Both the position numbers and the translations under genes were made by a program. This document shows positions 10,966-53,216 of a stretch of DNA of 64,000 bases, piece after piece. Each line of letters starts with the position of its first letter. Within the stretch, counting starts at the first letter, position 1. The notes beneath the pieces are model-generated. The model made no database searches. It saw only the letters and a list, made by a program, of their open reading frames with translations, and had not been told where the DNA came from. This DNA comes from Candidatus Zixiibacteriota bacterium (lineage in GTDB: Bacteria > Zixibacteria > MSB-5A5 > GN15 > FEB-12), in NCBI GenBank assembly GCA_034439475.1, contig JAWXAN010000042.1, forward strand, positions 64,765 through 128,764, read 5' to 3'.

Positions 10966-10974
10966 CACACGAAA

Positions 10975-12012: not shown

Positions 12013-12035
12013 GCTGAGGAAGGGTACTTTTTTTA

Positions 12036-16792: not shown

Positions 16793-19714
16793 ATGAATGG
16801 AAGGAGTCAGGTGCGATTTCATAAAGTCCGACAGAGTTTACTGACTCTCAATGTTCTTTTGTTAATGTTTTTTCCCTCATTTTCTTTCGCCAATGATCGC
16901 ATTCACGAAAGCTTATCCTCGTTAGCTGGCAATCTCCAAGCCGCTGACAGTTTAGTTGATGTTCTAATTTTCCTGGATACCAAAGAAACTGAGGCTGCCG
17001 TTTCCAAATCGCTCCAGCGTCCAAACATAAGCCGACATACAAGAATACAATCCGTCATTACAAGTCTCACTTCGGTAACTCCGACAGATCGTAGAGAAGT
17101 GGAAGATTTCTTAAACAGCATCTCCAGTTCGCCAGTTCAGTTATACTGGATAGCGCCTTGTTACACAGCAACTATTCCGGCAAGTTCGCTTGGAAAACTC
17201 TCGACCATGAGCGCCGTGACATTGATAATACCAAATCTTGGTATCGACTTTATCCCGGTGGTGGAAAGCTCTCCCGCTCCACAGTCTGTTTCGACAATAG
17301 CCTCCGAGCTCAATGCTATGGGCGTTCCTCAACTTTGGCAGCGGGGCCTGACTGGCAAAGGTCGGTTAGTCTGTTCATTCGATACCGGAGTCGAAGGTGC
17401 CCATCCGGCATTATCATCAAAATGGCGTGGAAGACATAGTACTCTCTCCTCCTCCTGGTTTTCCAGTGTCTCACCAGACAGCCTGCCATCAGACAAAGTC
17501 GGCCATGGAACGCACACGATGGGAATAATGGTGGGTTCGGCATCAGCCGATTCTTTTGGAGTTGCCCCCGGCGCCGAGTGGATTTCCGCCGCGGTAATTG
17601 ATCAGGGACGCCCGCTCGGTACGACTGTAAGCGATATTATTGCCGCATTTCAGTGGTCTCTCAATCCGGATGGAAATATCTCCACAACGAATGATGTCCC
17701 CGATGTCATTCTCAACAGTTGGGGTATCCCGACCGGCCTCTTTGGTCCCTGCGACCAAACGTTTTGGTCTGTTATTGATAATGTTGAAGCGGCGGGAATT
17801 GTAACAATTTTCGCGGCCGGAAACGAAGGACCAAATCAAAAAACTATCAGAAATCCAGCGGACAGAGGAAGCAGTCCAACCAACTCATTCTCGGTCGGCG
17901 CGATTGATCTCGGCAATGTCGTCGCAAACTTTTCAAGCCGCGGTCCATCGGCCTGCGATCCGACACATATCAAGCCCGAGTTGGTTGCTCCGGGTGTGGT
18001 TGTCCGTTCTTCGACCAAGGGCGGCGGGTTTGCTTTTATGAGCGGAACATCGATGGCCGCTCCGTATATTGCTGGTCTGGTGGCGCTGTGCCGCCAGTAC
18101 AATCCCGACGCAACAGTTGACGAAATAAAACAAGCGTTAATAAATGCCGCAAATGACCTCGGGCCTGTAGGTGAAGACAATGCCTACGGATATGGGTTGG
18201 TCGACGCGTCCCGCCTGCCTGACTTTCTTTCAGCGCCGAGTCGAGCGGAATTTTCGGTGGCAGGACAAATTGTCAACGGAGATGGCGTCGCCTCGCCGGG
18301 CGAACTGATCGGACTTACCCTGTATCTTACGCAAAACTTCTCTTTGAATGCCTCAGTTCAAGGTCGTTTGAAGCCCCGCACGGCGGGTAATGTCGCCGTT
18401 ATCAATCAGCAGTCAGGATTCATTTTCGGCGAAGGCGGGGTAACGGCAATGAATGCTATACCATTTACACTGATGATCAACGAATCGGTGCCGAATGGGG
18501 CTTCAGAAAGTTTGGTACTTTATGTCGAGACGACCGATGGATCTGTCATTGATAGTGTCGAGTTGATATTAACCGTTGGATTTATTCCTCCCGGTCCAAA
18601 TGTGTCACACGCTGGGACTGCTGTCAGATTTTCAGTCTCAGGATTTGGGCAGTACGGCCTGGCATACGGCTCGATTTACAATCTCAATGGCGAAGGTTTT
18701 TGTTTCGGGAATTCTGAGAATCTACTCTATGAATCCGGTTTGATAGTGGGCAGGAGCGCACTTCAGCTATCATCGGCAATTCGCAATAGTCAGGGTTCAT
18801 TTACTCCTTCCGATTTTGCGCCCATCGGCGAATTCAGTCAGAGCCAAACAGTCGGAGAACTTCGCTACACTGTTGGTTTCGATGACCGACGCTCGTCAAT
18901 TCCCCTTCCGATAACCATCTCGCAGGAGACAATTAGTTATTCCAGCTTTGAGGATAATAGCATCGTCATAATGAACTACACATTGACGAATAAGACGTTG
19001 GAACGTCTGACTAACCTCCGCTTCGGTTTTTTAAACGATTTTGATTTGCCCGGCGCAAATAAGGCATACCTTGACGAGGTCGAAGGCTTTATTTATCAGC
19101 ATGGTGAGGGTGGCGCATTTATTGGTTTGGTTGCGCTAAAAAATGTCAATTCGTTCACCAGCATTTCCAATGTGACTGGCAAAACAGGCTTCACAAAGAC
19201 CCAGCAGTTCAGCCTTATTTCCACGAATGTCAACAATGTCGACAGTTCGCTCTCGGGCGATCTGCTTTTCATCGCGGCCTCAAATTCCATAACCCTTGAA
19301 CCTCGGGGAAATACTGAAGTTGCTTTTGCGCTCATTGCCGGTGACAATCTCGGACAACTCTATGAGAATATGGCTCGGGCAAGGGCGAAGTATGATATTG
19401 CGACAGGAATCGAAGACGACCCGGATGTTTTGCCGCAAAGCTTCAGCCTCGAGCAGAACTATCCCAATCCGTTTAATCCATCGACGACAATATCGTTTGG
19501 ACTTTCTGAGAGAAGTCATGTTTCCATCAGGGTCTTCAACATTCAAGGTCAGACGGTCAAGACCTTGACTTCAGGAGAACTTGGCCCGGGTAGCCATTCA
19601 GTCCTCTGGGATGCCACAAATGATCGGAATGAACCGGTATCCACGGGAATCTATTTTTATCGACTGGACACTAATTTTGGGGTCGAGACCCGTAAAATGG
19701 TTCTTTTAAGATGA
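16793..19714 (+). CDS. Subtilisin-like S8 serine protease with T9SS C-terminal sorting domain
   Basis: Catalytic triad contexts FDTGV (D), HGTHTMG (H) and GTSMAAPYIAG (S). N-terminal signal peptide. C-terminus LEQNYPNPFNPSTTISFGL...TGIYFYRL...RKMVLLR. An alternative start is GTG 16811, preceded by AAGGAG. Confidence 0.9.
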   Translation: MNGRSQVRFHKVRQSLLTLNVLLLMFFPSFSFANDRIHESLSSLAGNLQAADSLVDVLIFLDTKETEAAVSKSLQRPNISRHTRIQSVITSLTSVTPTDRREVEDFLNSISSSPVQLYWIAPCYTATIPASSLGKLSTMSAVTLIIPNLGIDFIPVVESSPAPQSVSTIASELNAMGVPQLWQRGLTGKGRLVCSFDTGVEGAHPALSSKWRGRHSTLSSSWFSSVSPDSLPSDKVGHGTHTMGIMVGSASADSFGVAPGAEWISAAVIDQGRPLGTTVSDIIAAFQWSLNPDGNISTTNDVPDVILNSWGIPTGLFGPCDQTFWSVIDNVEAAGIVTIFAAGNEGPNQKTIRNPADRGSSPTNSFSVGAIDLGNVVANFSSRGPSACDPTHIKPELVAPGVVVRSSTKGGGFAFMSGTSMAAPYIAGLVALCRQYNPDATVDEIKQALINAANDLGPVGEDNAYGYGLVDASRLPDFLSAPSRAEFSVAGQIVNGDGVASPGELIGLTLYLTQNFSLNASVQGRLKPRTAGNVAVINQQSGFIFGEGGVTAMNAIPFTLMINESVPNGASESLVLYVETTDGSVIDSVELILTVGFIPPGPNVSHAGTAVRFSVSGFGQYGLAYGSIYNLNGEGFCFGNSENLLYESGLIVGRSALQLSSAIRNSQGSFTPSDFAPIGEFSQSQTVGELRYTVGFDDRRSSIPLPITISQETISYSSFEDNSIVIMNYTLTNKTLERLTNLRFGFLNDFDLPGANKAYLDEVEGFIYQHGEGGAFIGLVALKNVNSFTSISNVTGKTGFTKTQQFSLISTNVNNVDSSLSGDLLFIAASNSITLEPRGNTEVAFALIAGDNLGQLYENMARARAKYDIATGIEDDPDVLPQSFSLEQNYPNPFNPSTTISFGLSERSHVSIRVFNIQGQTVKTLTSGELGPGSHSVLWDATNDRNEPVSTGIYFYRLDTNFGVETRKMVLLR

Positions 19715-19804
19715 ACGCTTTTCCGTATATTCATTGACAAGGCTGAAGTGATACTTAACTACACGATGAAAAAAATAATTCATGCGATACAAAGGATAAC
19801 AAGG

Positions 19805-22603
19805 ATGAACAATCCAACTCGTTCTCTTGCGGCTGTCGCAGGGATCATTCTCTGTGTTCTGACGGCTGCTGCTGTCAATGCCGTTTCTCCTACCGATGAA
19901 GCAATCGCGATTTGGAAAGCACAGGGGATCTATGAACAAAAGATAGCGGATTGGAAGGCGTTCAAGGAGGCTGGGGGATGCGCGCCCGGTGACCACTCTC
20001 TTTTCAGCAGAGAGAGAATACTCGCCAAAATGGCGCTTGGGGTTGACTCAGTGGAGACGGTCTATGTCCCGGTAATCCTTGTTGATTTTGTTGACTATAA
20101 ATGGAACGACAGCACATATGTGTTGGACGGCCAAACCAAACTTTCCACCCGAGTCTACGGCACGCCGTCGATGTTTGAATCTCTGCTGTTTTCGATCAAG
20201 GGCTCACCCGAAAGCAACCCGACGGGTTCAATGACCGATTTTTATATGGAAAACTCAAATGGCAAATTCTTTATGATTGGCGAAGTTCATGGTTGGTACA
20301 CCATGGACAAGCCCTATTCATATTACGTCGGCACCAACAGTGGACTTGGTGGTACCGGCTCGGTGCTTGCACGGGAAGCTATTGACTCAGCCGACACTCA
20401 CGGAGTGGATTTCAGTAGATATGACAACAACAATAACAATACCGTTGAGGGAGTTATCATCGTCCATGCCGGACCCGGCGCCGAGACCGGTCAGTGGGGC
20501 ATTTGGTCGCATAAGTCGGGCGTAACTCAAAATAAGGACGGGATGAGATTCTCTCAGTACACATTAAATCCGGAAGAATATGGCGGCACGATCTCGACGA
20601 TGGGCGTGTTTGCTCACGAATATGGGCATGTGCTCGGTCTTCCGGATCTATATGATGTCGGAAGTAACTCTAATGCCAGCGGACTTGGAAATTGGTCACT
20701 CATGTCAGGAGGAAGTTGGAATCAGAACGGCCGTGTGCCGGCTCATTTCGACGGATGGTGTAAGTGGAATCTTGGTTTTGCCAAGGCAACCATCTTGACT
20801 CAGAACACGCGTCAGGTCGAGTTCCCACAAACGACAACAGAAGCAGTCGTCTATCTTTTGCGAAATGCATCGGTTAGTTCGCTTGATTGGTGGATTGTCG
20901 AAAATCGTCAGAAAGTCGGCTTTGATGCGGCCCTGCCAGGGGCCGGTCTTATGATATATCATTACGACCAGGGAGCCGGCGCTCAGAATGACACGAATAG
21001 ATATCTCGTAGCGCTCGAACAAGCCGATGGATTAAATGGACTAATTAACGGCAGTAGCGGCGATGCCGGTGATACCTGGCCGGGGTCAACCAATAAGAGA
21101 AACTTTACAAATTTCACTACCCCTAATTCCTCTACAAATATAGGCGGACTGACAACTCAGGTCGGCGTCTGGAATATTTCCAATTCTGGGCCGATCATGT
21201 ACGCCGATCTTGACATCTCGTACTCAAGACCCTGGGTTGTTCTCTCAGGCGGCGATTCGATTAAGTTTTCCGATAATCTCCCGGGAGGTGACAACGATGG
21301 TATTTTCGAAGCTGGTGAAACGATTAAGTTTAATATGGGAGTGCTGAATCTGGCTAAAATCGCCTACGATACAAAGGTCACCTTGACCTGCGATAACCCC
21401 ACGCTCACTTTCGGCGGCAATCCCGGAAAACTCGAAACATTTCTTAATCCTACATTCACCGACCCGATTCGGATGCACACACCGATTTCGATTGTTATTC
21501 CGGCGGACTTTCAATCCAAAGGAGTCAATTTTACCATTACGCTGAACAGCGACTCGGTTATCAGTCTCAGCAATGGCGATGGCCTATTTGTAACAACTTT
21601 CCAGTCAAAAGTTACACTTGGAGCGCCTCAGATTATGCTTGTTGACGACGACAACGCTGGAGGATTCCAGAGCAGATACACCGTAGTACTTGATAGGATG
21701 AATCTTCCTTACGCAATTTGGGACAAGAGTGTAAGAGGAACTCCACCCTCGGCAGAGCTTGCAAAATATAGTTCCGTTTTCTGGTTTACCGGCTCGCAAA
21801 CAGCGGGCGGAACCCTGACAGCGGCTGATATAAGCGCGATCAAGCAACATATGGATGGCGGGGGCAATCTATGCCTGTCCAGCATGACTGTTCCTACTCA
21901 GTTGACTACCCTTGATTCAACATTCATGGAAACATATCTGAAGGCATCAGCTGGAAATTCACTGTTTGCCACTTACTTCTATGGTGTGCCCGGATTTGAG
22001 GTCAGTGACAGCAGCAGATATAATACGACCGGCGGTCATAATGGCACTCACCGCACTTTAACACCAATCAACGGTGGTCAGAGTCTGTTCACCCTCGGTA
22101 CGAACGGTAGTAATACGTCGCTCGGTACATGTGGAGTGCTCTATGATGGCTCATACAAGTCGGTGTTTTTGAGCTTTGCGATTGAGCATCTGAGTGATGG
22201 CTCATTAAACTCTAAACCCAAAGATTCGCTGATAGCTCGGATTATTAACTTTTTCGGAAAGGGAACTGCAACGGGCATCGATGATGACCAACAGGCTGGA
22301 CTTGTGCCCGCCGGATTCTCGTTGGCTCAAAATTATCCAAACCCCTTCAATCCAAGCACAACTATCGAGTATACAATTAACGGCAGCACAGGCTCGCGCA
22401 TACAGCGGGTGACACTTGCGGTCTATAATCTCCTCGGACAGAATGTGCGCACATTGGTCGACCAGACTCAGGGGCCGGGAACGTATACTGTAACCTGGGA
22501 TGGGAGCAATACCGAAGGGAGAGCTGTTTCAACCGGGCTTTACTTCTATCGACTTCAACGGGAAGGCGCAAGCGAGACCAAGAAGATGGTGCTCCTGAAA
22601 TAG
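19805..22603 (+). CDS. M6 (immune-inhibitor-A-like) zinc metalloprotease with T9SS C-terminal sorting domain
   Basis: HEYGHVLGLPDLYD zinc motif. Signal peptide MNNPTRSLAAVAGIILCVLTAAAVNA (start chosen at 19805; the track ORF opens at 19748). C-terminus LAQNYPNPFNPSTTIEY...TGLYFYRL...KKMVLLK. Confidence 0.85.
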   Translation: MNNPTRSLAAVAGIILCVLTAAAVNAVSPTDEAIAIWKAQGIYEQKIADWKAFKEAGGCAPGDHSLFSRERILAKMALGVDSVETVYVPVILVDFVDYKWNDSTYVLDGQTKLSTRVYGTPSMFESLLFSIKGSPESNPTGSMTDFYMENSNGKFFMIGEVHGWYTMDKPYSYYVGTNSGLGGTGSVLAREAIDSADTHGVDFSRYDNNNNNTVEGVIIVHAGPGAETGQWGIWSHKSGVTQNKDGMRFSQYTLNPEEYGGTISTMGVFAHEYGHVLGLPDLYDVGSNSNASGLGNWSLMSGGSWNQNGRVPAHFDGWCKWNLGFAKATILTQNTRQVEFPQTTTEAVVYLLRNASVSSLDWWIVENRQKVGFDAALPGAGLMIYHYDQGAGAQNDTNRYLVALEQADGLNGLINGSSGDAGDTWPGSTNKRNFTNFTTPNSSTNIGGLTTQVGVWNISNSGPIMYADLDISYSRPWVVLSGGDSIKFSDNLPGGDNDGIFEAGETIKFNMGVLNLAKIAYDTKVTLTCDNPTLTFGGNPGKLETFLNPTFTDPIRMHTPISIVIPADFQSKGVNFTITLNSDSVISLSNGDGLFVTTFQSKVTLGAPQIMLVDDDNAGGFQSRYTVVLDRMNLPYAIWDKSVRGTPPSAELAKYSSVFWFTGSQTAGGTLTAADISAIKQHMDGGGNLCLSSMTVPTQLTTLDSTFMETYLKASAGNSLFATYFYGVPGFEVSDSSRYNTTGGHNGTHRTLTPINGGQSLFTLGTNGSNTSLGTCGVLYDGSYKSVFLSFAIEHLSDGSLNSKPKDSLIARIINFFGKGTATGIDDDQQAGLVPAGFSLAQNYPNPFNPSTTIEYTINGSTGSRIQRVTLAVYNLLGQNVRTLVDQTQGPGTYTVTWDGSNTEGRAVSTGLYFYRLQREGASETKKMVLLK

Positions 22604-42862: not shown

Positions 42863-42890
42863 TTGACTTATCGCAGTATTTGGCTATACT
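42863..42890 (+). promoter_or_regulatory. Sigma-70 promoter candidate for the giant gene
   Basis: TTGACT (42863-68), 16-nt spacer, TATACT (42885-90). This predicts a leader of roughly 190 nt. Confidence 0.55.
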
Positions 42891-43089
42891 TCTGGTAGAG
42901 GCTGAAAGAGGTAGGCTCCAATCGAGACCCTCATACATTTACTGCATAAGGCTTGTGAAAGCTGATAGTTGAAAAGAATTCAGTGTGAAAAGCTGTCCTT
43001 TGGGGAAGCAATTCCCTTCGGGATTCCGAGAACGCGCCGAGAACAACTGCTGCCGCTCTTGGTTTGAGGAAGTCGATTTAGGAGGAAAG

Positions 43090-46000
43090 ATGAATCGATT
43101 CGGGTTGTTGTCTATATATTTACTTGCGTGTCTTCTCTGTATTGGTGTTGCTGGCAGCGTTAATGCCGACCCGCTGGTACATCCCCCCATTTTGGAACTG
43201 CCCAATGATACGGCAGTTTTTTTGTGCAAGGGAGACTCTATCTGCTATGTGGTTGCGGCCACCGACACCGATCCCCTCGAAGAACTGACGCTGAGCTTGC
43301 TCAGCGGCCCGATTAGTTTTCCGACCAAAAAATTCGACAATCCGCTCACTACAAAAATCTGCTTCAAACCAACAAGCGGGGGGACATACCGATTCATCTG
43401 GAAAATAGTCGACAATTCCGGCCGGTCGGATATCGATACCGTCATATATACAGTCTTATTCAACGATCCTCCTTCAATGCAAGACCAGTACTTCTCGACG
43501 CTTTTTTGCAGAGGAGAGTCAGTCAGGACCCTGCAAGTTGTAGCTACTGATGCCGAAAACGATATTCTCACATATAAACTGATCTCCGGCCCGGGATCTA
43601 TAAATCCAGAGTCCGGCCTCATCAGTTATCTCCCGATAGCTACCGGCATATATACTTTTTCGGTTCTCGTGACCGATTTATGCGGAAGCGATATGGCCAA
43701 TGTGTTCGACACCGTCGAGGTCGTCAAACCAGCAAAACTTGACTGTCCGGGGGATACCTCAATTACGATCTGCGAGGGGACCAAAATCTGCCTCTATGGT
43801 TTTTCGTCGACCTTCGATGAGACGACTGTATCACATGGCACAATTGTCAATGAGACGCTCTGTTTTACGGCTGATACATCCGGCGTCTATGTTATCAAAG
43901 TTATCGGAACCGACAAATGCGGCGCGGATACCTGTGAAACCAGAGTGACGGTAAACAAAGGCGAACTTCCGAGCATCAAAGACCAATACTTTTCGGGTAG
44001 TTTCTGTTCTGATGAGATAAAAAGAACCCTTCAGGTTATTGCGACCGATGCTGACAATGATGTTCTGACCTATGAATTGCTCTCAGGTCCCGGCTCGATC
44101 AACTCATCGACCGGTTTGATTGCGTACACACCAACAGCAAGTGGCGTTTATACTTTTTTAGTTAGTGTGAGCGATACATGCGGAAGCGCTATCGCACAGG
44201 TATTCGACACGATAGTTGTCAATCCGAAAGGGAAGGTTGACTGCCCCGGCGATACCTCGCTGATGCTTTGCGAAGGAACAAAAGTTTGCCTCCCCGGTTT
44301 CGGATCCGATTTTGAGCATACGACCGTGTCGCTGGGAACGCTTGTCGATGGCACAGTCTGCTTTACGGCTGACACGAGCGGTGTCTATGTTATTAAGTTG
44401 ATAGGCAGCAATGAGTGCGGCGCTGATACCTGCGAGACACGGGTCACGGTCGGAAAGAGTACATTTACAGGATTTGTCTGTGGCGATACCGCCAACAGTA
44501 AAACTCTTAACCTTTGCTCGTCAGAAAATATTACTGTTCTCAAGGATTGTCATATAAATGGCGATCAAGTGTCGGTTATCTCATCATATGGGACATGGAA
44601 TGCTCAGACGGGAAACTGGACCTTCTACGCTGATACAAGCGGATTATATACGACCTTGATCGTTGCAACCGATTCCTGTGGCGCGAGTGATTCGCTCACA
44701 TTAAGTCAGGAAGTGGCAATAAACAAGCCACCCAGGATAGTTTTGCCAAACGACACCACCACGTTCTTATGCGAATCAGATTCGATATGCTTTGAATTCT
44801 TCGTGTTTGATTCACCAAGTGATATCAGAGGTAGAATTGTTGAATCGAACATCGGAAGTTTCAAGCCACAGGCTGCTCCTATTTTATTCCCACAGACCAA
44901 ATTTGAGGTCTGCTTTTTAGGGGACACAGCCGGTGTGTACCAAATTATCATCACCGCCACTGACTCATGCGGTGTAACCGACAAAGATACCGTCTTAGTT
45001 ACCGTCAAGAAAAACCGCGCGCCGTATATTACTATGGCCAACGATTTCACCGTCGCAAGCTGTACCGCTGAAAAAATCTGTTTTTCTGCCACCGCCGATG
45101 ATCTTGATCTCAACATCCAGACTATTACTTCAAATTTTGGTATATTCGATAACAACAGCGATCGAATCTGTTTCGATGCCGACACGAATGGCGTCTACAC
45201 GATCATCCTCACTGCTACCGACAGTTGCGAAGTGAGCGATCAAGACACAACCAAAGTCACGGTCACTGTCAACAAGCCGCCGACATTGAGTCTTGGACCT
45301 GATTTCACCAAAGACACCTGTGGACTCCTGTCCGAAATTTGCATAAACACCGGCATAGTTGACGAGAATATTAAATCTGTCACGACCACTTTTGGGCTTT
45401 ATAATCCTAACACCAAACAGGTCTGTTTTATACCCGATTCATCCGGCCTCTACGTTCTTGTAGTAAGAGTTGTCGACGATTGCAATATCGCTGCAGTAGA
45501 TACGGTCAATATAACCATCGGTCTCAACCACCCGCCGACTGTCAGCGGCTTCAATGATACGACCCTCTATATCTGTTCGCCGCAATATATCTGCCTTAAT
45601 CCTTCGATCATAGATGCTGACAATGATATTGCGTCGGTGACGATCAATCAGGGGAAATTCAAAGACGGCATGTACTGCTTTGTTCCCTACGACAGCGGGA
45701 CATACACGCTTATTTTAACTGTGATCGATTCCTGTGGCAATAAAGTTATAGATACGGCCAAGGTCAAAGTCACAACTGATCAAGGAATGAATGTGGTCGT
45801 CCCGAAAGACACCTCGATTTTCCTCTGCGAAGCGGATACCCTTTGTTTCCCGATAAAAAATATACCCGCCAATGCGACAATTAAAGTTCGCGGTACTGGT
45901 GTCTGGTACAATCCGGCAACCCAAACAGTCTGCTTCTACTCATCATGCTGTATCCAGAACAAGATTTATGTCGATGTGACGACACCATGCGGAAAGCGCA

Positions 46001-49000
46001 CATTCAGCTTCACCGTCAATCTGATGACTAACAGCAAACCGCTGGTGATTCTGCCTCAGGACGGCGCGTATCAACTTTGCGACGCCAAGGAAATCTGTCT
46101 CCCGGCCGGTATTTCTGATTTGGACAAAAATATATCTTCCATTGTGGTGGAAGGCGGAACATACGACGCATACAGCAAAACAATCTGTTTTGCTCCCGAT
46201 ACTGCCGGAGTCTATATTATCAAAGTAACGGCTACCGACTCGTGCGGCCTGGGCGACTCCGATTTTATCCGCGCGACAGTGCGAATCAACTTCCCACCAG
46301 TTATCACGTATACCCCGACAGACAGCATTTTTGAGCAATGTAATCTCACTCAGATTTGTTTGCCGGTAAATGTTTCCGATAATGACAAAAATATCCAAAA
46401 CATTACCGTCTCGAACGGCGGTGTGTATAATGCAATCAACAAAACAGTCTGTTTCAACCCACCGGGCATCGGACAGTTTTGCCTCCAGATGGTTGCCTAT
46501 GACAGTTGCGGTATTGCCGATTCAGCAGACATCTGTTTCACAGTTACCGCGGGCGACTCGGTTGAGATTGCCTGCCCTGTGATAGGCACTCCTGGTCGTT
46601 CACGTGGCTCCGTGACGACCGTTATTCCGGCATTGCTCTGCGGGCCGGACTCTGTTTGTATCCCGCTTGCCGTAACAGGTGATTATTCGTCGATTTCCGT
46701 CACCGGCGGAATATATAAAGATGGTGAGATATGCTTTTACGCTGACACAACCGGTGAATACAGCTTCACGGTTATTGCATCCGGTTCATGCAACAGTGAC
46801 ACCTGCCAGTTTACTTATCCCGTGATGATTGAGCCATCGGTTTTCGTGAGATGCCCAGGCGATACTGCGGTAAATCTTTGTTTTAGCGATACGCTTTGTT
46901 TCCCGATCGAGACATCGGTTCCGATGACCTACCTGACAGTTCTTGGCGGAGGTTACATTGATGGAGCGAACCTCTGCGTTCCGCTCACAGTGACCGGCAC
47001 AAAAATTATTACTGTCATCGCCGCAGGCGAATGCGGCTCAGACACCTGCTCGTTTACAGTCGGTACCAAACTCAATACGCCGCCAAGTGTCAAAGTTGAC
47101 GACACCACGTTTACCCTTTGTGCGCTCGATAAACTCTGCTTCCCAGTTGATGTCTTTGATGTTGATGGTAACCTGAAAGAACTCACAACGTCTATCGGCT
47201 CAGTTGGAAAAGTTGCAATCGAAAATCTTGCCGCACAGGTACTGAATGAAGACGGCCAGCCGACTGTATCAACGACACCGGAATACAAGATATGCTTTAC
47301 CCCAGAAGCTTATGGCACATACAATATTGTTGTCACTGCGATCGATTCATGCGGCAAAACAGATACCGACACTCTGACTGTTACTATCAATCAAGGGGAT
47401 GGTGTCTCGATAGCCTGTCCGAAACTGGACTCGCTCAGTTTTTGCGCTCCGAGCCAAATCTGTCTGCCGATACCAATAACAGGCGAAACGTTTGATGTCA
47501 TTTCCGGCTTTGGCGTCTGGGAAAACGACACCCTCTGTTTTGATGCCGACACAAGCGGATTCTATGCTTTTGACCTGATAGCGACATCAGGATGCAACAC
47601 CGATACTTGTTTAATCGAGATTGCAATCGCGATTTCAGATTCAGTTAACATAACCTGTCCGACCGGGGATACCACCTTGGTTGCCTGTCAGTCACCGGCC
47701 GTCTTCACCTTCCGCTATTCGATTACCGGCAATCCCACCAAGATTACCATTACCCCGCCCAATGCTATATTAGAGGGGGGACTTATCAAATTGACGGTCA
47801 ATCAGACTGGCTCGTATGTGGTCAAAGTTATTGTTGAAGGCAACTGTAATATTGACAGCTGTTTTTTCACTGTGAATGCCGCAATCAATACCCCGCCAGT
47901 GTTGATGGGACCTGAAGATACAAGTCTTGTCGCTTGCGTCCTGAGTACAATATGCCTGCCTATCAAAGCAGTCGATGCCGAAAATAATATCCGTGAAATT
48001 CGGTCGACACTCGGCGTGGTCGATGATTCAGTCATCTGCTTTACTCCGTCGGCATTCGGCGACTATCAAATTATTCTCTCGGCCGTCGATTCCTGCGGCG
48101 AGCGCGCAGTCGATACCTTCTTAATTTCCGTGAATCAGGGAGATTCAGTTGAAATCAACTGCCCGAACTCAACAATCCTTGTCTCGGTGATAGTTCCTGA
48201 TTCGATTCGTGTCCCGCTCACCATTACGCCTGAAGGAGTGGGTGTGATAATCCAGCCCGACGGTTCGGGTTACTATGACCAGAACACCAGCGAGGTTGTT
48301 GTGTATGTGACTTCATATGGAGCGCATTCCTACCAAGTGATTGCTTCAAGTAAATGCGATGTTGACTCATGTGACCTCACTATCGAAGTCGGCGAATATT
48401 TCCCGCCGACTGTGGTGTGTATCGGGACCACAGACACAGTGCTCTGTTTGACCGAACAGGATACGCTCTGTTTGCCGGTAACAGTATCTGGTAGTGCGAC
48501 CAATGTTGCCGTTTCTCCGGCAGGCGTGTACGCTGACGGTCAGGTTTGCATTCCTGTTGACACCGCCGGAACATATTTGGTTCGGATAATCGCCTCAAAC
48601 GAAACCGACGCCGATACCTGCTATTCTTCAATCACAGTTACCCGCAGCAAGCCGCCTGTTGTCGACTTGCCGCCATCGCTGTCATTTGCGCTCTGCCAGT
48701 TCGGAGAGCTGTGTGTCCCGGTTGATATAAGTCAGAGTGACTATGACCTTGCTCAAATTACAGTCAACTTTGGCCGCTACGACTCGACCCTTAAATCAGT
48801 CTGCGCGACATTTGACACAACCGGATTATATACGATAATCGTCTCAGTCATCGACTCATGCGGTAACTCTTCAACCGATACCTCGCTTGTGACTGTCACT
48901 GTCAATACCCCTCCGACTGTTGGCCTTGGCGCTGATTTCAAAGAGTTCTTGTGCGCTGTATCCAGCGAGATTTGTGTGCCAGTAAATGTCTCAGATGACA

Positions 49001-51444
49001 ACCTCGGCACTGTCACCTCCAATTTTGGGGTCTACAGCGCGGTAAAGAATACGGTTTGTTTTATAGCAGATACTTCGGGAATCTACACGATTATTGTGAC
49101 TGCCACCGACACGTGCGGCCAGTCGTCGGTTGATTCAATTAGAATAGACGTTGAAAAGAATACTCCGCCCTCGATTAGCGCTTTCAAAGATACTTTGCTA
49201 TACCTCTGCAAACCACGTGAAATATGCCTCCCGCTCAGCGTTCTCGACATCGATGGCAATCTGGCTTCGGTGACGGTAAATCGCGGCACGATTAAAAATG
49301 GCACAATCTGCTTTGTCCCGTATGACAGCGGGTCATATCAGTTCATTATTACTGCTACAGACTCATGCGGAGCGATCGCTGAGCATCGGGCAACGTTACG
49401 AATCAGAACCGATCAGGGAATTGCGCTTATCTGCCCGAAGGACACAGCGTTGTTCTTGTGCGAGCCTGATACGCTCTGCTTCCCAGTGGGCGGAATCCCT
49501 GACGATGCAACTGTCACAGTGTCAGGAACTGGTGTCTGGTGGGATCCGATAGGACAGAAAGTCTGCTTCTACTCCTCGTGCTGTATCCAAAATAGAATAC
49601 GTGTCAACGCCAAATCAGCATGCGGACAGACATTTACGTGCAGCTTTACTGTCAATCTGATGACCAATGCCAAACCGCTGGTCATTCTGCCCCAGGACAC
49701 GACTGTTGTCCAGTGTGCTCCGACACAAATTTGTTTGCCGGTCGGAATTCAGGATATTGATAAGAATCTTAAAAATATTACGGTTGTTGGCGCAGTTTAT
49801 AACGCACAATCTAAGATTGTTTGTTTCACACCCAATACTGTCGGTACATACACGATAACGGTCAAGGCGACCGACTCATGCGAATTATATGACGATGACA
49901 AAATGGTTGTTCGTGTTGAAGGAAACAAACCGCCGACAATCAGCTACACGCCGGTTGACACGGTATATAATCAGTGCCAGCCAACTCAGATTTGTCTGCC
50001 GGTTTCAATTGCCGATTCCGATAGTAATCTCGGTTCAGTCACGGTAACCGGGGGCGTGTATAACGCTACTCAGGGCACAGTCTGCTTCACGCCGAACAGC
50101 TCCGGCGAGTATTGTGTCATGGTATACGCGAACGATAAATGTGGGACGAGTGACACGCTTGAAATTTGTGTTGACATTACCACAGGCAATTTTGCGGAAA
50201 TTCTCTGCCCAGCCAATCCCTTCAAAGAAGACACGCTCTGCAAACCCGGTCTTGTCTGTGTTCCGCTATCTGTGACTGGAGTGAATTACTCCGTGACGGT
50301 CGAAAGCGGAACATGGGAGAGCAACCAGCTCTGTTTCAGCGCAGACACCAGCGGTGTATATACACTCAAGGTCATTGCCTCAGCGCAGTGCAACAGTGAT
50401 ACCTGTATTGTAAGAGTCCCCATGGTTATCGAACCTAAAATCGAGATTGTTTGTCCGGGTAACCAGAATGTCTTTCTTTGTGGTTCCGATACGCTCTGTT
50501 ATCCATTGACCGTTTTAGGATCAGTAACAAATATCACCGCCAGCGCCGGTGCGTATATCGAGGGCAATAACGTCTGTGTGCCCTTTATCGTGAGTGGCAG
50601 TCGATCCATACAAGTCATCGCCAGCGGTGAATGCGGAGCAGATACCTGCGCGTTTACGATCTCAGCTACAATTAATAGGGCTCCGATTGTGACCCTTGGC
50701 AAAGACAGTGCTTTGACGGTCTGTACTTTGAACCAGATTTGTGTGCCTTTGACTATTCAAGATTTCAATAGTAATATTCGAACGATAACGACCACACTTG
50801 GGACAATTCAGGGCAGCCAGCTTTGCTTTACCCCAACCACATTCGGGACATTCACCCTAATTGTGACTGCCACCGACTCCTGCGGAGCAAGCGGCAAAGA
50901 CACGATCAAAGTGACTATCAACAAAGGCGCCTCGGCTGTTATCACATGTCCCGATAATCTCCAGTTCGCATCGCTTTGCAAACCAGACACGATCTGTATC
51001 ATTGCGCCCATAACACCCGCAAATGCCATTGTCACAATTCTCCCAGCTGGAACGTACAATCCATCAACCGGCACGATCTGTGTGTATGCTGACAAGAGCG
51101 GCACCTTTCCGATTAAGATTATCGCATCCGCCCCATGCGGCACTGATACGTGCGACTTCAATCTTCAAGTCACACTGAACCAAAAGCCGGTTATTTCCTG
51201 TCCCGGAGCAATTGATACGCTTCTCTGCATTGCTTCGCCGACGACGCTGTGCTTCCCAGTGACTGTCACAGGAACAGGAGTCAGTGTTACGGTCAAACCG
51301 TTTGGAACATACTCGGCCGGAACGGTCTGCCTGCCGATATCAGCTGTAGGGACATTCGCAATAAAAATCATCGGAACAGGCGTCTGCGGAGTAGACACCT
51401 GCGAAACTTCGGTGACCGTCCGCAAGGATGAGGCCCTTCGCTAA
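43090..51444 (+). CDS. Giant secreted cysteine-rich modular protein (about 32 Ig-like modules); N-terminal part of a split T9SS cargo
   Basis: GGAGGA RBS (43081-86). Signal peptide MNRFGLLSIYLLACLLCIGVAGSVNA. Reiterated ~85-100-aa modules carry conserved Cys and the core ...(I/V)CF.(A/P)DTSG(V/I)YT...V.ATDSCG..D.DT..VTV. The protein has no C-terminal sorting domain of its own. Confidence 0.9.
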   Translation: MNRFGLLSIYLLACLLCIGVAGSVNADPLVHPPILELPNDTAVFLCKGDSICYVVAATDTDPLEELTLSLLSGPISFPTKKFDNPLTTKICFKPTSGGTYRFIWKIVDNSGRSDIDTVIYTVLFNDPPSMQDQYFSTLFCRGESVRTLQVVATDAENDILTYKLISGPGSINPESGLISYLPIATGIYTFSVLVTDLCGSDMANVFDTVEVVKPAKLDCPGDTSITICEGTKICLYGFSSTFDETTVSHGTIVNETLCFTADTSGVYVIKVIGTDKCGADTCETRVTVNKGELPSIKDQYFSGSFCSDEIKRTLQVIATDADNDVLTYELLSGPGSINSSTGLIAYTPTASGVYTFLVSVSDTCGSAIAQVFDTIVVNPKGKVDCPGDTSLMLCEGTKVCLPGFGSDFEHTTVSLGTLVDGTVCFTADTSGVYVIKLIGSNECGADTCETRVTVGKSTFTGFVCGDTANSKTLNLCSSENITVLKDCHINGDQVSVISSYGTWNAQTGNWTFYADTSGLYTTLIVATDSCGASDSLTLSQEVAINKPPRIVLPNDTTTFLCESDSICFEFFVFDSPSDIRGRIVESNIGSFKPQAAPILFPQTKFEVCFLGDTAGVYQIIITATDSCGVTDKDTVLVTVKKNRAPYITMANDFTVASCTAEKICFSATADDLDLNIQTITSNFGIFDNNSDRICFDADTNGVYTIILTATDSCEVSDQDTTKVTVTVNKPPTLSLGPDFTKDTCGLLSEICINTGIVDENIKSVTTTFGLYNPNTKQVCFIPDSSGLYVLVVRVVDDCNIAAVDTVNITIGLNHPPTVSGFNDTTLYICSPQYICLNPSIIDADNDIASVTINQGKFKDGMYCFVPYDSGTYTLILTVIDSCGNKVIDTAKVKVTTDQGMNVVVPKDTSIFLCEADTLCFPIKNIPANATIKVRGTGVWYNPATQTVCFYSSCCIQNKIYVDVTTPCGKRTFSFTVNLMTNSKPLVILPQDGAYQLCDAKEICLPAGISDLDKNISSIVVEGGTYDAYSKTICFAPDTAGVYIIKVTATDSCGLGDSDFIRATVRINFPPVITYTPTDSIFEQCNLTQICLPVNVSDNDKNIQNITVSNGGVYNAINKTVCFNPPGIGQFCLQMVAYDSCGIADSADICFTVTAGDSVEIACPVIGTPGRSRGSVTTVIPALLCGPDSVCIPLAVTGDYSSISVTGGIYKDGEICFYADTTGEYSFTVIASGSCNSDTCQFTYPVMIEPSVFVRCPGDTAVNLCFSDTLCFPIETSVPMTYLTVLGGGYIDGANLCVPLTVTGTKIITVIAAGECGSDTCSFTVGTKLNTPPSVKVDDTTFTLCALDKLCFPVDVFDVDGNLKELTTSIGSVGKVAIENLAAQVLNEDGQPTVSTTPEYKICFTPEAYGTYNIVVTAIDSCGKTDTDTLTVTINQGDGVSIACPKLDSLSFCAPSQICLPIPITGETFDVISGFGVWENDTLCFDADTSGFYAFDLIATSGCNTDTCLIEIAIAISDSVNITCPTGDTTLVACQSPAVFTFRYSITGNPTKITITPPNAILEGGLIKLTVNQTGSYVVKVIVEGNCNIDSCFFTVNAAINTPPVLMGPEDTSLVACVLSTICLPIKAVDAENNIREIRSTLGVVDDSVICFTPSAFGDYQIILSAVDSCGERAVDTFLISVNQGDSVEINCPNSTILVSVIVPDSIRVPLTITPEGVGVIIQPDGSGYYDQNTSEVVVYVTSYGAHSYQVIASSKCDVDSCDLTIEVGEYFPPTVVCIGTTDTVLCLTEQDTLCLPVTVSGSATNVAVSPAGVYADGQVCIPVDTAGTYLVRIIASNETDADTCYSSITVTRSKPPVVDLPPSLSFALCQFGELCVPVDISQSDYDLAQITVNFGRYDSTLKSVCATFDTTGLYTIIVSVIDSCGNSSTDTSLVTVTVNTPPTVGLGADFKEFLCAVSSEICVPVNVSDDNLGTVTSNFGVYSAVKNTVCFIADTSGIYTIIVTATDTCGQSSVDSIRIDVEKNTPPSISAFKDTLLYLCKPREICLPLSVLDIDGNLASVTVNRGTIKNGTICFVPYDSGSYQFIITATDSCGAIAEHRATLRIRTDQGIALICPKDTALFLCEPDTLCFPVGGIPDDATVTVSGTGVWWDPIGQKVCFYSSCCIQNRIRVNAKSACGQTFTCSFTVNLMTNAKPLVILPQDTTVVQCAPTQICLPVGIQDIDKNLKNITVVGAVYNAQSKIVCFTPNTVGTYTITVKATDSCELYDDDKMVVRVEGNKPPTISYTPVDTVYNQCQPTQICLPVSIADSDSNLGSVTVTGGVYNATQGTVCFTPNSSGEYCVMVYANDKCGTSDTLEICVDITTGNFAEILCPANPFKEDTLCKPGLVCVPLSVTGVNYSVTVESGTWESNQLCFSADTSGVYTLKVIASAQCNSDTCIVRVPMVIEPKIEIVCPGNQNVFLCGSDTLCYPLTVLGSVTNITASAGAYIEGNNVCVPFIVSGSRSIQVIASGECGADTCAFTISATINRAPIVTLGKDSALTVCTLNQICVPLTIQDFNSNIRTITTTLGTIQGSQLCFTPTTFGTFTLIVTATDSCGASGKDTIKVTINKGASAVITCPDNLQFASLCKPDTICIIAPITPANAIVTILPAGTYNPSTGTICVYADKSGTFPIKIIASAPCGTDTCDFNLQVTLNQKPVISCPGAIDTLLCIASPTTLCFPVTVTGTGVSVTVKPFGTYSAGTVCLPISAVGTFAIKIIGTGVCGVDTCETSVTVRKDEALR
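43468..44463 (+). repeat. Tandem duplication (2 x 498 bp, 166 codons) inside the giant gene
   Basis: PPSMQDQYFSTLFC...CGADTCETRVTVNKGE is followed directly by LPSIKDQYFSGSFC...CGADTCETRVTVGKS. The two copies are collinear throughout. Confidence 0.85.
45010..51440 (+). repeat. Super-repeat inside the giant gene: a multi-module block of about 3.63 kb followed by a second, shorter, collinear copy
   Basis: The offset is exactly 3,633 bp at three checkpoints: VNKPPT 45268 / VNTPPT 48901, CFYSSCC 45931 / 49564, and (I/L)CP 46573 / 50206. Module order is conserved to the end of the ORF. Confidence 0.85.
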
Positions 51445-51536
51445 CCGTCCCCTCTGGACTTAGTTTCGAACGCTGTCCCGAGGATTCGACTCCAATCTGC
51501 GTCGATGGAATATATGGCGATGACAGCCGTAGCGCC

Positions 51537-53216
51537 GTGACATTGAGCAAAACATGCGGCATAGGCTCGCTGGTCCTCAGCGGCTCAGATAGTGGCAAAA
51601 TATGTTTTGTTCCAGACACGACCGGCATCTATACCTTCTGTGTTCAAGCTACCGACGGCTGCAATGTGACGAAAGACACCGTGTCTGTAACGATTTTGCC
51701 TAAAGATGATTGCGATGTTTGTGTCCGCTTCTCATTTGACTACGGTGAATGTTCACCTGTGGGCGTGCGCAAGAAAATAGCTCTTAATATCGAATCAAAT
51801 CAGCCCATCGGCGGTTTTGAGCTTCTGTTGAGTTTCGATGCCTCGGTGCTCAGTTTCGTTGGAGCCTCAACAGTTGGAACCGCAATTAAGGATTGGGAGT
51901 ATTTCACATGGAATCTTAAGAGCGCAGGTTGCGGCTCATCGTGTCCCTCGGGACTTATACGGTTTGTGGGAATAGCGGATATTAATAACGGAGCCAAACA
52001 CCCACCCCTGTCGGCCTTCTCGCCCAATGGCGCGCTTGTATTCATTGAATTCCAGATTGCCAACAATCAGAACCTCGGAGATCAATTCGTTCCGGTTTCC
52101 TTTGTATGGTTTAGCTGCGCTGACAATAGTGTCTCCGACCCAACGGGAAGCACTCTGTATGTCGATAGCCGAATCTACAATCCGGGCGGCATTCTGCTGT
52201 GGGACGAATTCAATGATACCGTTTTCCCTGAAAGTAATCGACTGTTCGGTCTTGGAGCGCCAGACAACTGCTTTACCGGCGCTGGCAAGACGCCTCCGCG
52301 GCGGTGTATTGAGTTTATCAACGGCGGAGTTTGTATTATTCATCCGGATTCGATTGATGCTCGCGGCGATGTCAACCTTAATAATCTCGCGTATGAGATA
52401 GCCGATGCCGTGCTCTTCTCAAATTACTTCATCCACGGGCTCGGCGTTTTCACTCTTAGCGTCCCCGGACAGATTGCCGCGACCGATGTCAATGCTGATG
52501 GTTCCACGCTTACTGTTTCTGATTTGACATACCTCATTCGCGTTATTGTCGGCGATGCCGATCCGGTGCCCAAGACAGATCCGTATGCTGAAAACGCATC
52601 GGTAGAAACCGAAACAAGCAATGGGCAAATGACAGTTTCAACCGAAACAGTCGGGGATGTCGGCGGGGCCTATTTTGTCTACGCACTTTCAGAGAACATG
52701 GTGATAGAATCTGTGCAGTTGACCGATGCGTCCTCGCAGATGGACCTCATGTACGGAGTAGAGAACGGCCAGTTGCGAATACTTGTCTGGAATATTGGAA
52801 CAGCACGAATCGAAGCTGGCAAGCATGATCTTCTCAAAATCAACTACGCTGGCGAGGCAGATGTACGGCTGGACAAGGTAGACATAGCCGATTATCATGG
52901 ACGGCCATACGTCACAGGTAAGACCGCTGGAGCTGTTCCGGAAAGCTACACGCTCCAACAGAACTATCCGAATCCGTTCAATCCGACGACTACAATCTCA
53001 TTCAGTCTGCCCGTATCCGGCGTGTGGAAGCTGAGCATATATAATATCAGAGGCGCGCTTGTGAGACAATATACCGGAAGTGACGAAGCTGGCTCAACGA
53101 ATGTCGTCTGGGATGGTAGAACCGAACAAGGTGAAACGAGCGCATCTGGCATGTATCTCTACCGTCTGGAGGCGGCAAGCTTCTTGAAGACAATGAAAAT
53201 GATACTATTGAAGTAA
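51537..53216 (+). CDS. C-terminal part of the split giant protein: one further Cys-rich module, a cohesin-like domain, a dockerin-like pair, a beta-sandwich and the T9SS sorting domain
   Basis: This frame is already open from 51432 and encodes a complete upstream module half (LTVPSGLSFERCPEDSTPICVDGI...). There is no signal peptide at the GTG start. ICFVPDTTGIYTFCVQATDGCN matches the giant-gene module. The C-terminus is LQQNYPNPFNPTTTISFSL...GMYLYRL...MKMILLK. Confidence 0.85.
   Translation: MTLSKTCGIGSLVLSGSDSGKICFVPDTTGIYTFCVQATDGCNVTKDTVSVTILPKDDCDVCVRFSFDYGECSPVGVRKKIALNIESNQPIGGFELLLSFDASVLSFVGASTVGTAIKDWEYFTWNLKSAGCGSSCPSGLIRFVGIADINNGAKHPPLSAFSPNGALVFIEFQIANNQNLGDQFVPVSFVWFSCADNSVSDPTGSTLYVDSRIYNPGGILLWDEFNDTVFPESNRLFGLGAPDNCFTGAGKTPPRRCIEFINGGVCIIHPDSIDARGDVNLNNLAYEIADAVLFSNYFIHGLGVFTLSVPGQIAATDVNADGSTLTVSDLTYLIRVIVGDADPVPKTDPYAENASVETETSNGQMTVSTETVGDVGGAYFVYALSENMVIESVQLTDASSQMDLMYGVENGQLRILVWNIGTARIEAGKHDLLKINYAGEADVRLDKVDIADYHGRPYVTGKTAGAVPESYTLQQNYPNPFNPTTTISFSLPVSGVWKLSIYNIRGALVRQYTGSDEAGSTNVVWDGRTEQGETSASGMYLYRLEAASFLKTMKMILLK
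51711..52346 (+). other. Cohesin-like domain coding segment
   Basis: VRFSFDYGECSPVG..IALNIESNQPIGGFELLLSFDASVLSFVGAS...GALVFIEFQIANNQNLGDQFVPVSF matches the cohesin-type beta-sandwich pattern (GGF.L.L.FD...L.F). Recognised by eye only. Confidence 0.5.
52356..52565 (+). other. Dockerin-like duplicated Ca-binding segment
   Basis: Two EF-hand-like repeats: GDVNLNNLAYEIADAVLFSNYF and TDVNADGSTLTVSDLTYLIRVIVG. Confidence 0.55.

Follow-up and report, generated by a model that had tools for sequence, protein, structure and literature searches.

A giant cysteine-rich Ig-like repeat protein of Zixibacteria with a type IX secretion sorting domain and a cohesin-dockerin-like base, a candidate disulfide-stapled surface rod

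Introduction

Giant bacterial surface proteins composed of immunoglobulin (Ig)-like repeats are usually accessory, fast-changing adhesins, and the known solutions for stiffening them are Ca2+ bridges and intradomain isopeptide or ester bonds. The RTX adhesins of Gram-negative bacteria, with bacterial Ig-like (BIg) domains, are exported by type I secretion systems (T1SS) and carry RTX repeats; they are poor in cysteines, are stiffened by Ca2+ between domains and present ligand-binding domains near their tips. SprB is composed of SprB repeats (PF13573) and ends with a type B sorting domain. In the Gram-positive Mobiluncus mulieris, a 7,651-aa adhesin contains dozens of tandem Ig-like domains, each with covalent cross-links, including a cross-strand disulfide; its ester, isopeptide and disulfide links are all intra-domain, and the authors infer a flexible interdomain linker (PMC10619420). 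Here we describe a giant gene of Candidatus Zixiibacteriota bacterium, located at positions 43090-53216 of a 64,000-nt stretch of contig JAWXAN010000042.1 (GCA_034439475.1), hereafter called the window. Its product is probably a Sec- and type IX secretion system (T9SS)-exported, C-terminally attached, disulfide-locked rod of 33 Ig-like domains, serving as a fibre or an adhesin.

Results

One gene in two frames

The locus appears as two frames on the forward strand, an open reading frame (ORF1) at 43090-51444 that starts with ATG and codes for 2,784 residues, and a second frame open from 51432, with its stop codon at 53214-53216. On sequence comparison they constitute one gene of 3,375 residues, because near-identical unsplit members exist in JGI, Logan and ENA assemblies; a preliminary description of this stretch, made from its letters, had likewise proposed a single giant gene of ~3,375 codons if fused. 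The two-frame appearance originates from a CCC run at 51434-51436 (+), which a base-by-base comparison showed to have one C fewer than other assemblies; from a reading of the junction, an extra C in this run would fuse both frames. The 194.8-kb JGI contig Ga0163154_10000023 has CCCC at the junction and hence a single 3,375-aa ORF. An exact look-up of the 2,784-aa ORF1 product yielded no record, and the fused form was found by homology search as a 3,375-aa protein (P0001) that is 100% identical across the whole of ORF1. The intact protein is encoded on both the JGI contig and the Logan contig SRR6448214_6988. Each alignment to the window shows a single gap and a single mismatch, the aligned length being 30 kb for the JGI contig and 21 kb for the Logan contig. 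The cluster at 90% identity comprises four unsplit members from the JGI, Logan and ENA assemblies, with lengths of 3,375, 3,375, 3,410 and 3,246 aa.

In the NCBI record of the metagenome-assembled genome (MAG), the protein is split as in the window, into MDZ4723463.1 (2,784 aa) and MDZ4723464.1 (559 aa), which match the window ORFs exactly. From the comparison of assemblies, a homopolymer consensus error in the MAG is the most likely cause of the split, a recent null allele being less likely, and the two NCBI models should be a single gene. A programmed frameshift or phase variation at this site is not favoured, as the run has just 3-4 C and the orthologues retrieved are single multi-thousand-residue proteins. 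An assembly chimera of shorter paralogues, which the preliminary description had itself envisaged, or a collapse of repeats is unlikely: the longest DNA repeats are at most 64 nt at 60-84% identity, Tandem Repeats Finder reports nothing, several assemblies agree, and 40 orthologues align collinearly.

A contiguous array of Ig-like modules

Thirty-three contiguous Ig-like modules of ~85 aa occupy residues 29-2871 of the fused protein (43174-51701, +), as identified with a hidden Markov model (HMM) derived from the protein itself, AlphaFold2 (AF2) models and Foldseek searches. This HMM, built from one module and then refined over successive searches of the protein, delineated 33 contiguous modules between residues 29 and 2860, each with an E value of 1e-16 to 1e-31, which align as one family; 32 of them lie within ORF1, and the 33rd straddles the ORF junction. 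The total of 33 modules obtained by motif counting in the preliminary description is thus borne out by the HMM, although a strict version of the motif used finds only 24 of them.

An AF2 model of modules 30 and 31, generated from 32 orthologous pairs, consists of two beta-sandwiches (pLDDT 95.9, pTM 0.72). The best PDB matches of this model in Foldseek were tandem Ig-like arrays, namely those of SraP, sidekick, titin, cadherins, LigA and an RTX-adhesin extender, with E values of 1e-8 to 1e-6, as well as of NCAM. As judged from the model, the modules are Ig-like/E-set beta-sandwich repeats at the fold level. A profile search of the PDB with the modules detected only distant Ig-like relatives (the cadherin-like modules of SraP, SiiE, and the PKD domains of KIAA0319L and ColH).

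Assignment to a named family proved more elusive, as the preliminary description had anticipated. With the whole protein, Pfam returned only sums of sub-threshold matches, to PKD (53.6 bits) and Big_9 (59.5 bits), both of which pass as sums, and to K319L-like PKD and Y_Y_Y. Taken singly, just 2 of the 33 modules pass a gathering score, namely modules 2 and 4, with 27.6 and 32.1 bits for Big_9 (PF17963; cut-off 23.6). These two apart, membership of PKD (PF00801/PF18911), Big_9 or He_PIG (PF05345) was not found module by module, and sub-threshold matches were obtained for K319L-like_PKD (11/33), PKD_4 (8/33) and He_PIG (6/33). Two N-terminal modules had been described as He_PIG/cadherin-like; He_PIG is borderline in module 4 (23.3 bits for a cut-off of 24). 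Three modules with six Cys residues scanned singly matched no Pfam family at E≤1. The HYR-like skeleton suggested earlier has no HMM support: HYR (PF02494) and HYR_4C (PF23237) are absent among the 25 of 27 matched families shown for the 33 modules at E≤1, and eight modules scanned singly gave no match to them. Pfam thus lacks a model for these modules, most clearly for the 6-Cys type.

The modules had been described as two largely alternating classes. Their cysteine-class order, 1a2a2a11111a112122122111211221221, instead consists of conserved blocks and 1-2-2 triplets, and the C-terminal string ...122122122111211221221 recurs in many of the closer orthologues. Modules 9-17 (45262-47634, +) and 23-31 (48895-51177, +) represent the first and second copies of an old segmental duplication: modules at an offset of 14 are 36-61% identical, versus an average of ~27% at other offsets, and both copies are present in the orthologue consensus. 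Modules 2-3 and 4-5 form a younger duplication. As shown by per-module orthologue coverage, modules 3-7 (43717-45009, +) are a lineage-variable region, with modules 3, 6 and 7 covered in 0, 1 and 0 of the 24 closest orthologues, respectively. Neither the modules nor the tail were found elsewhere in the 64-kb window.

Cysteine co-variation within and between modules

Cysteines account for 168 of the 3,375 residues (5.0%), in keeping with the very Cys-rich protein first reported. We analysed their co-variation in 1,211 modules from 40 proteins (set 1), in which six Cys positions, C1 to C6, recur, and in 78 species genomes (set 2), which partly overlap set 1. C1, in the 'CP' at the start of the module, and C6, in the 'DTC' at the start of strand G, co-occur with a phi coefficient of 0.96-0.97, and C3 (strand B) and C4 (strand E) with a phi of 0.95-0.96. 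C2 and C5 are occupied in 97% and 95% of cases, respectively. The presence of C2 in a module goes with that of C5 in the following module, with a phi of 0.83 and a contingency table of [[25,6],[4,1127]] in set 1; the corresponding table for the 78 species genomes is [[25,10],[2,1520]]. Two other pairings were discarded, namely C2 with C5 of the same module (phi -0.01) and C5 of a module with the sequence-nearest C2, that of the next module (phi -0.04).

The ends of the array and one internal junction follow the same rule. At the internal junction, which belongs to the window protein, C2 is missing from module 20 and C5 from module 21. The first module has no partner on its upstream side; it is devoid of C5 in 34 of the 40 proteins. 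All 34 proteins with C2 in their last module have a tail that opens with C-x-x-C, and the six others, in which that C2 is missing, have a single Cys there; in the window protein, C-x-x-C motifs are confined to the signal peptide and the start of the tail. The AF2 strand map places C2 at the C-terminal pole of the domain, just after strand A', and C5 at the opposite, N-terminal pole, within the tight F-G turn. By this map the two would be far apart inside one domain and adjacent across a junction, an arrangement that fits the Ig topology.

We infer two intra-module pairs, C1-C6 and C3-C4, and an inter-module staple linking C2 of a module to C5 of the next at 31 of the 32 junctions, which is well supported but unproven. 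Of the four to six conserved Cys residues per module previously pointed out, C1, C6, C3 and C4 thus appear to pair within the module, whereas C2 and C5 appear to do so between modules. At the junction between modules 20 and 21, C2 and C5 are lost while module 21 keeps C1 and C6. The pairs therefore behave independently, and a Cys4 metal cluster at the junctions is disfavoured. The sole substitution of the JGI contig affects one of these residues: at 46187, the window has G (the consensus Cys, C4 of module 12) and the JGI contig A (Tyr). The Tyr allele would leave C3 of module 12 without a partner.

The modules devoid of the C1-C6 pair show another feature, since an acidic D-x-[DN]-x-[DN] loop, written D-x-D-x-N in the preliminary description, is present in 55% of them, versus 5% of those with C1-C6. 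These loops may bind Ca2+. In addition, modules 11 and 25, which are mutual duplicates, contain a vicinal Cys-Cys (45946-45951 and 49579-49584; residues 953-954 and 2164-2165) in the motif VCFYSSCC, kept in orthologues as VCFYSDCC. With a mean orthologue identity of 53-55%, these modules are among the most conserved of the 33, and they might serve as a functional site instead of acting simply as spacers.

A cohesin-dockerin-like tail with a sorting domain

Downstream of the modules, the tail comprises a first cohesin-like beta-sandwich (residues 2875-3085; 51711-52343, +) that opens with a conserved C-D-V-C, a dockerin-like segment (residues 3086-3162; 52344-52574, +) with a pair of D-x-N-x-[DN] loops and a helix-forming stretch after each loop, a second cohesin-like beta-sandwich (residues 3163-3285; 52575-52943, +), and a T9SS type A C-terminal sorting domain followed by the stop codon (52965-53216, +). 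The sorting domain was recognized by TIGR04183 of NCBIfam at residues 512-591 of ORF2 (38.9 bits for a cut-off of 23), which corroborates the T9SS assignment made earlier; in Pfam it matches FlgD_ig (3e-9) and Por_Secre_tail, the latter just under the cut-off (25.3 versus 27 bits).

The cohesin-like and dockerin-like nature of the tail, also part of the preliminary description, is supported by the fold of the two sandwiches, by the orthologues of the segment between them and by more distant relatives. An AF2 model of the 425 residues that precede the sorting domain, computed from 20 orthologues, shows two confident sandwiches (residues 8-222, and 300-410 with a pLDDT of ~85) flanking a poorly modelled stretch. 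In Foldseek, this model matches the cohesin dyad 3l8q (5.7e-9) and single cohesins with TM-scores to the target of 0.6-0.79 (0.79 for 1aoh and 3ul4). At the sequence level, Pfam Cohesin (PF00963) has no match in the window's own sequence even at E≤10, and a PDB profile search with the whole orthologue tail gave only one marginal match, of the second sandwich to cohesin 2xdh (E=0.22). Dockerin_1 (PF00404) matches 14 of the 20 orthologous dockerin-like segments, with a best E value of 9.2e-7, and the best PDB profile matches of this segment, although weak, are the dockerins 4fl4_A and 4dh2_B. No part of the protein is better conserved than the tail: mean orthologue identities are 75% for the dockerin-like segment, the highest value, 60% for the sorting domain and 58% for the first cohesin-like domain, as compared with 30-55% for the modules.

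A full-library profile search with the tail cassette identified 1,585 cluster representatives at E≤1e-10, 996 of them at E≤1e-30. The 40 cassette-bearing representatives that we examined are of three kinds. Some are fragments with 3-9 modules upstream of the cassette and are probably giant relatives; others are complete, with a signal peptide, a sorting domain, 2-6 tandem cassettes and at most one Ig module; yet others are complete, with one cassette behind 400-660 residues of unrelated sequence. Some of these relatives pass the Pfam Cohesin cut-off of 24.1 bits (36.6 and 29.3 bits), and P0121 reaches 35.7 bits with Dockerin_1, likewise above the cut-off. P0126, P0141, P0147, P0163, P0121 and others are complete proteins with 2-6 tandem cassettes, a signal peptide and, in most cases, a tail of the C-terminal sorting domain type. 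By their composition, such multi-cassette proteins (P0126, P0141 and the like) look like scaffoldins and are candidate docking partners of the giant protein.

Another protein with the same tail, P0169, harbours classical CP...DNC-type modules that match PF23237 HYR_4C ('HYR-like domain with 4 cysteines'). As this signature matches the modules of P0169 and was not among the matches listed for those of the window, at least two types of Cys-rich Ig-like modules are joined to this tail. These comparisons place the base of the giant protein within a wider repertoire of cohesins and dockerins borne by proteins with T9SS sorting domains.

Leader sequence and overall features

The N terminus appears to be a Sec-type signal peptide (residues 1-26, MNRFGLLSIYLLACLLCIGVAGSVNA followed by DP; 43090-43167, +). 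It was read by eye from the translation, with a basic n-region, a hydrophobic core and V-N-A before the first D of the mature chain, and complete tail-bearing relatives likewise begin with a basic residue and a hydrophobic run. A Shine-Dalgarno sequence, AGGAGG, was read directly at 43080-43085 (+), and we preferred the start at 43090 over a GTG at 42985 because AGGAGG lies 4 nt before this ATG. Some 200 nt upstream of the start, TTGACT-16-TATACT (42863-42890, +) is a candidate sigma-70-like promoter by consensus match, with 10 of 12 matching positions; the scan found 4 sites in the region for 0.6 expected.

The predicted mature protein is very acidic (~355 kDa, pI ~4.3). It contains 12 His residues in all, no CxxCH heme motif and no match to a metal-binding family. 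As regards the features of fibrillar adhesins, a stalk of 33 modules and an anchor in the form of the T9SS sorting domain were found, and an adhesive domain was not.

A conserved gene in a stable neighbourhood

More than 200 large relatives were found, 120 of which, as listed, span 1,750-3,949 aa; nearly all the named ones are from Zixibacteria/GN15 MAGs. Their database names are generic, for instance 'T9SS type A sorting domain-containing protein' and 'PKD repeat protein', or they are called hypothetical. Forty are collinear with the window protein and have 25-38 modules and 3.9-5.2% Cys each. In the searched library, we found no literature linking Zixibacteria with T9SS or type IX secretion, and, among the papers listed, nothing relevant on Zixibacteria with adhesin, PKD, giant or surface protein, cohesin or dockerin. 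The family is therefore uncharacterized rather than unseen; it was presented earlier as undescribed, which holds inasmuch as no study was found, but not for its members, more than 200 of which are already in public databases.

A scan with the tail profile of one genome per species yielded 365 relatives. The best 80 of the 365 are mostly labelled Zixibacteria or GN15, and the rest Ignavibacteriales, Calditrichaeota or 'bacterium'. The search for homologues and synteny called for by the preliminary description thus provided both the 40 collinear orthologues and a conserved genetic environment: among these best 80 loci, the convergent downstream genes are rlmH in 75, ftsY in 73, yjbQ in 68 and smc in 63. 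Where enough DNA is present, acs, a band-7 gene or uvrB lies upstream of the giant gene. The order acs or band-7/uvrB, giant gene and convergent rlmH-yjbQ-ftsY-smc is unusually stable across most of these loci (L003-L082). Two tail-bearing loci per genome were found in JAYRFH01 and JACRAV01.

Because neighbourhood, module order and class order are conserved across relatives, we regard the giant gene, on comparative grounds, as a vertically inherited core gene of Zixibacteria in a housekeeping neighbourhood rather than as a mobile or accessory adhesin gene.

Other genes of the window

A row of three genes at 7636-14306 (+) codes for a 1,109-aa outer-membrane protein with CarboxypepD_reg, Plug and TonB-barrel domains, a PorV/PorQ-family protein (10975-12009; NF033709, 197 bits for a cut-off of 90) and a 757-aa protein with no Pfam or NCBIfam match. 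This row might belong to a sorting apparatus of the T9SS type, here in a phylum other than Bacteroidota. Adjacent genes at 16793-19711 and 19748-22600 (+) encode secreted proteases, an S8 subtilase and an M6 InhA-like metallopeptidase, both of which end in a FlgD_ig/Por_Secre_tail-type sorting domain like that of the giant protein, without the cohesin-dockerin cassette. A 979-aa sigma-54 activator with an N-terminal MalT-like TPR region is encoded at 3512-6448 (+), with no evident link to the giant protein.

Discussion

A possible structure and its role

From the signal peptide and the sorting domain, we infer that the chain would cross the inner membrane by Sec and would fold and be oxidized in the periplasm. 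Its sorting domain would then be recognized, and T9SS-type machinery would pass the chain across the outer membrane, the protein remaining attached by its C-terminal end. C3-C4 bonds between strands B and E would lock each module, and in the 6-Cys modules C1-C6 bonds would also link the A and G strands. At the junctions, the C-terminal pole of one module, with C2 in its A'-B turn, would face the N-terminal pole of the next, and C2 would bond there with the C5 of that module's F-G turn. In this manner, 31 of the 32 junctions would be covalently stapled, and a further staple would join the last module to the C-x-x-C at the start of the tail. If each Ig domain spans ~4 nm, the result would be a stiff rod of ~100-150 nm. 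About half of the modules without C1-C6 carry the acidic loops that might bind Ca2+, and the highly conserved cohesin/dockerin base would dock the rod to itself or to scaffoldin-like partners with the same cassette.

Such a rod would most likely serve as a structural surface fibre or adhesin, keeping the cell attached to particles or to other cells. As for the broader proposal that combines a disulfide staple at nearly every junction, a rod that is core to the phylum and a cohesin-dockerin base engaged in a T9SS-linked, scaffoldin-like network, we put it forward tentatively, at somewhat short of even confidence.

Several observations weigh against the stapled and anchored fibre. The co-variation counts are inflated by shared ancestry: 23 of the 25 internal co-losses in set 1 correspond to one orthologous junction, and ~5-6 co-loss events look independent across both sets. 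A few junctions are also discordant, in most cases where an N-terminal module is truncated or divergent. Disulfides outside the cell might not be stable in the anoxic environments from which many Zixibacteria originate. At the base, the dockerin-like segment of the window scores 16.5 bits, under the Dockerin_1 cut-off of 22.9, and AF2 confidence is ~30 in this segment. Lastly, Pfam and the HMM derived from the protein identified no distinct ligand-binding domain, as one module family fills the chain from the signal peptide to the tail; given this, the label 'adhesin' is a conjecture.

Alternative explanations

The protein might be released or self-assembling, with its cohesin and dockerin modules binding in trans, so that the molecules would polymerize head-to-base or become cross-linked into a sheath, an S-layer-like lattice or a biofilm matrix. 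The presence of both types of modules in one chain, the conservation of the tail above all other parts and the existence of multi-cassette scaffoldin-like proteins speak for this possibility, as does the fixed architecture of a core gene, which adhesins do not usually have and which is more characteristic of structural components of the envelope. However, there are only one dockerin-like and two cohesin-like modules per rod of 33 modules, and in the Bacteroidota studied, type A sorting domains usually lead to surface attachment; on balance we find self-assembly rather unlikely. The cohesin and dockerin homologies, together with the frequency of the cassette in other secreted proteins, some with 400-660 residues of unrelated N-terminal cargo, and the nearby genes for secreted proteases with the same sorting domain, might instead indicate a cellulosome-like scaffold, in which the giant protein would act as a surface spacer, with its cohesin-like modules recruiting dockerin-bearing enzymes or its dockerin plugged into an anchoring scaffoldin, for polymer degradation instead of adhesion. 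Yet nothing else in the 64-kb window harbours the cassette or a dockerin, including the proteases, and the cargo proteins examined gave no enzyme-family match, which makes a degradative scaffold improbable.

Two further alternatives bear on the cysteines and on the gene itself. The conserved Cys residues might be free thiols or metal ligands, binding metal-sulfide minerals, or metal ions at the module junctions. Paired conservation alone cannot separate disulfides from two-ligand sites, four Cys residues cluster at the junctions leading into 6-Cys modules, and many Zixibacteria live in reducing sediments. Nevertheless, the loss of C2 and C5 with retention of C1 and C6 between modules 20 and 21 is a misfit with a Cys4 site, the protein has no CxxCH, only 12 His and no match to a metal-binding family, and C3 and C4 are located on adjacent strands, B and E, like known cross-strand disulfides. 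We thus consider thiols or metal sites very unlikely. Regarding the gene, the frameshift might be real in this genome, so that ORF1 would code for a product without a sorting domain, non-functional or retained in the periplasm. The NCBI MAG record has the same split into 2,784 and 559 aa, and the window is a separate consensus, one single-nucleotide polymorphism apart from the JGI and Logan contigs. But the four near-identical cluster members are unsplit, and one-base changes in a homopolymer are typical of consensus errors; at the junction, ORF2 lacks both a ribosome-binding site and its own start, and the rest of the 10 kb shows no decay. A truly broken gene has, in our view, little probability. 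The disulfide-locked, surface-attached fibre encoded by one intact gene remains our preferred reading.

Implications

The giant gene has kept its module order and cysteine-class order across 30-50% sequence divergence, and this conserved order points to a structural role in the cell envelope of Zixibacteria. If true, the inter-domain staple would be a new principle for stiffening protein fibres; to our knowledge, disulfide-stapled domain junctions have not been described as the basis of a rigid bacterial surface fibre. It would also provide a design rule for engineered rigid rods, namely a Cys in the A'-B turn and another in the F-G turn of the next domain. The occurrence of cohesins and dockerins beside T9SS sorting domains suggests that organisms other than the classical cellulosome producers assemble protein networks on their surface and, if true, this would represent a non-cellulolytic, 'cellulosome-style' surface architecture in an uncultured phylum.

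Comparison with known systems

The closest proteins are the orthologues of Zixibacteria/GN15, including MBI5266936.1, PWB74943.1 (UniRef100_A0A855XB90) and HOP07403.1, which have the same architecture, tail, sorting domain and neighbourhood. With 25-38 modules, 3.9-5.2% Cys and 30-49% identity, they are collinear with the window protein and show no difference in kind.

Among characterized proteins, the RTX/BIg adhesins (region II of Marinomonas MpIBP, Aeromonas 6xi1, Salmonella SiiE 2yn3) are similar in that they harbour acidic arrays of Ig-like extender domains of ~85-105 aa. They share acidic loops with the giant protein and are among its structural and profile matches. Unlike them, it has a T9SS sorting domain, ~5% Cys, a putative inter-domain disulfide and no distinct tip domain; with no RTX or hemolysin-type Ca-binding match in Pfam or NCBIfam, it falls outside the RTX/T1SS group. 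The SprB filaments of Bacteroidota are likewise giant, repetitive surface proteins with a C-terminal T9SS signal, but the giant protein has no match to the SprB repeat, its sorting domain is of type A, and it belongs to a different phylum. HYR and HYR_4C domains resemble its modules in being Ig-like and ~80 aa long, with C-P at the start and C-x-F-x-V at the end, but neither was among the HMM matches listed for its modules. The giant protein would work like the extender region of a fibrillar adhesin and is not, by the defining features of these groups, a member of the RTX, SprB, PKD or HYR families.

The cellulosomal and non-cellulosomal cohesin-dockerin modules of Acetivibrio cellulolyticus ScaA (3l8q), Clostridium thermocellum CipA (1aoh) and Archaeoglobus fulgidus (2xdh) have the cohesin fold that the tail sandwiches share, and the two-loop dockerin pattern is found between those sandwiches. 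Unlike in those systems, a single chain combines cohesin and dockerin, which adjoin a T9SS sorting domain at the foot of an Ig-like rod; moreover, the first cohesin-like domain is larger (~210 aa, with conserved Cys), and enzyme partners were not identified. Among cross-linked proteins, the adhesin of M. mulieris comes closest; the giant protein differs from it in that one of its conserved Cys pairs would bridge consecutive domains.

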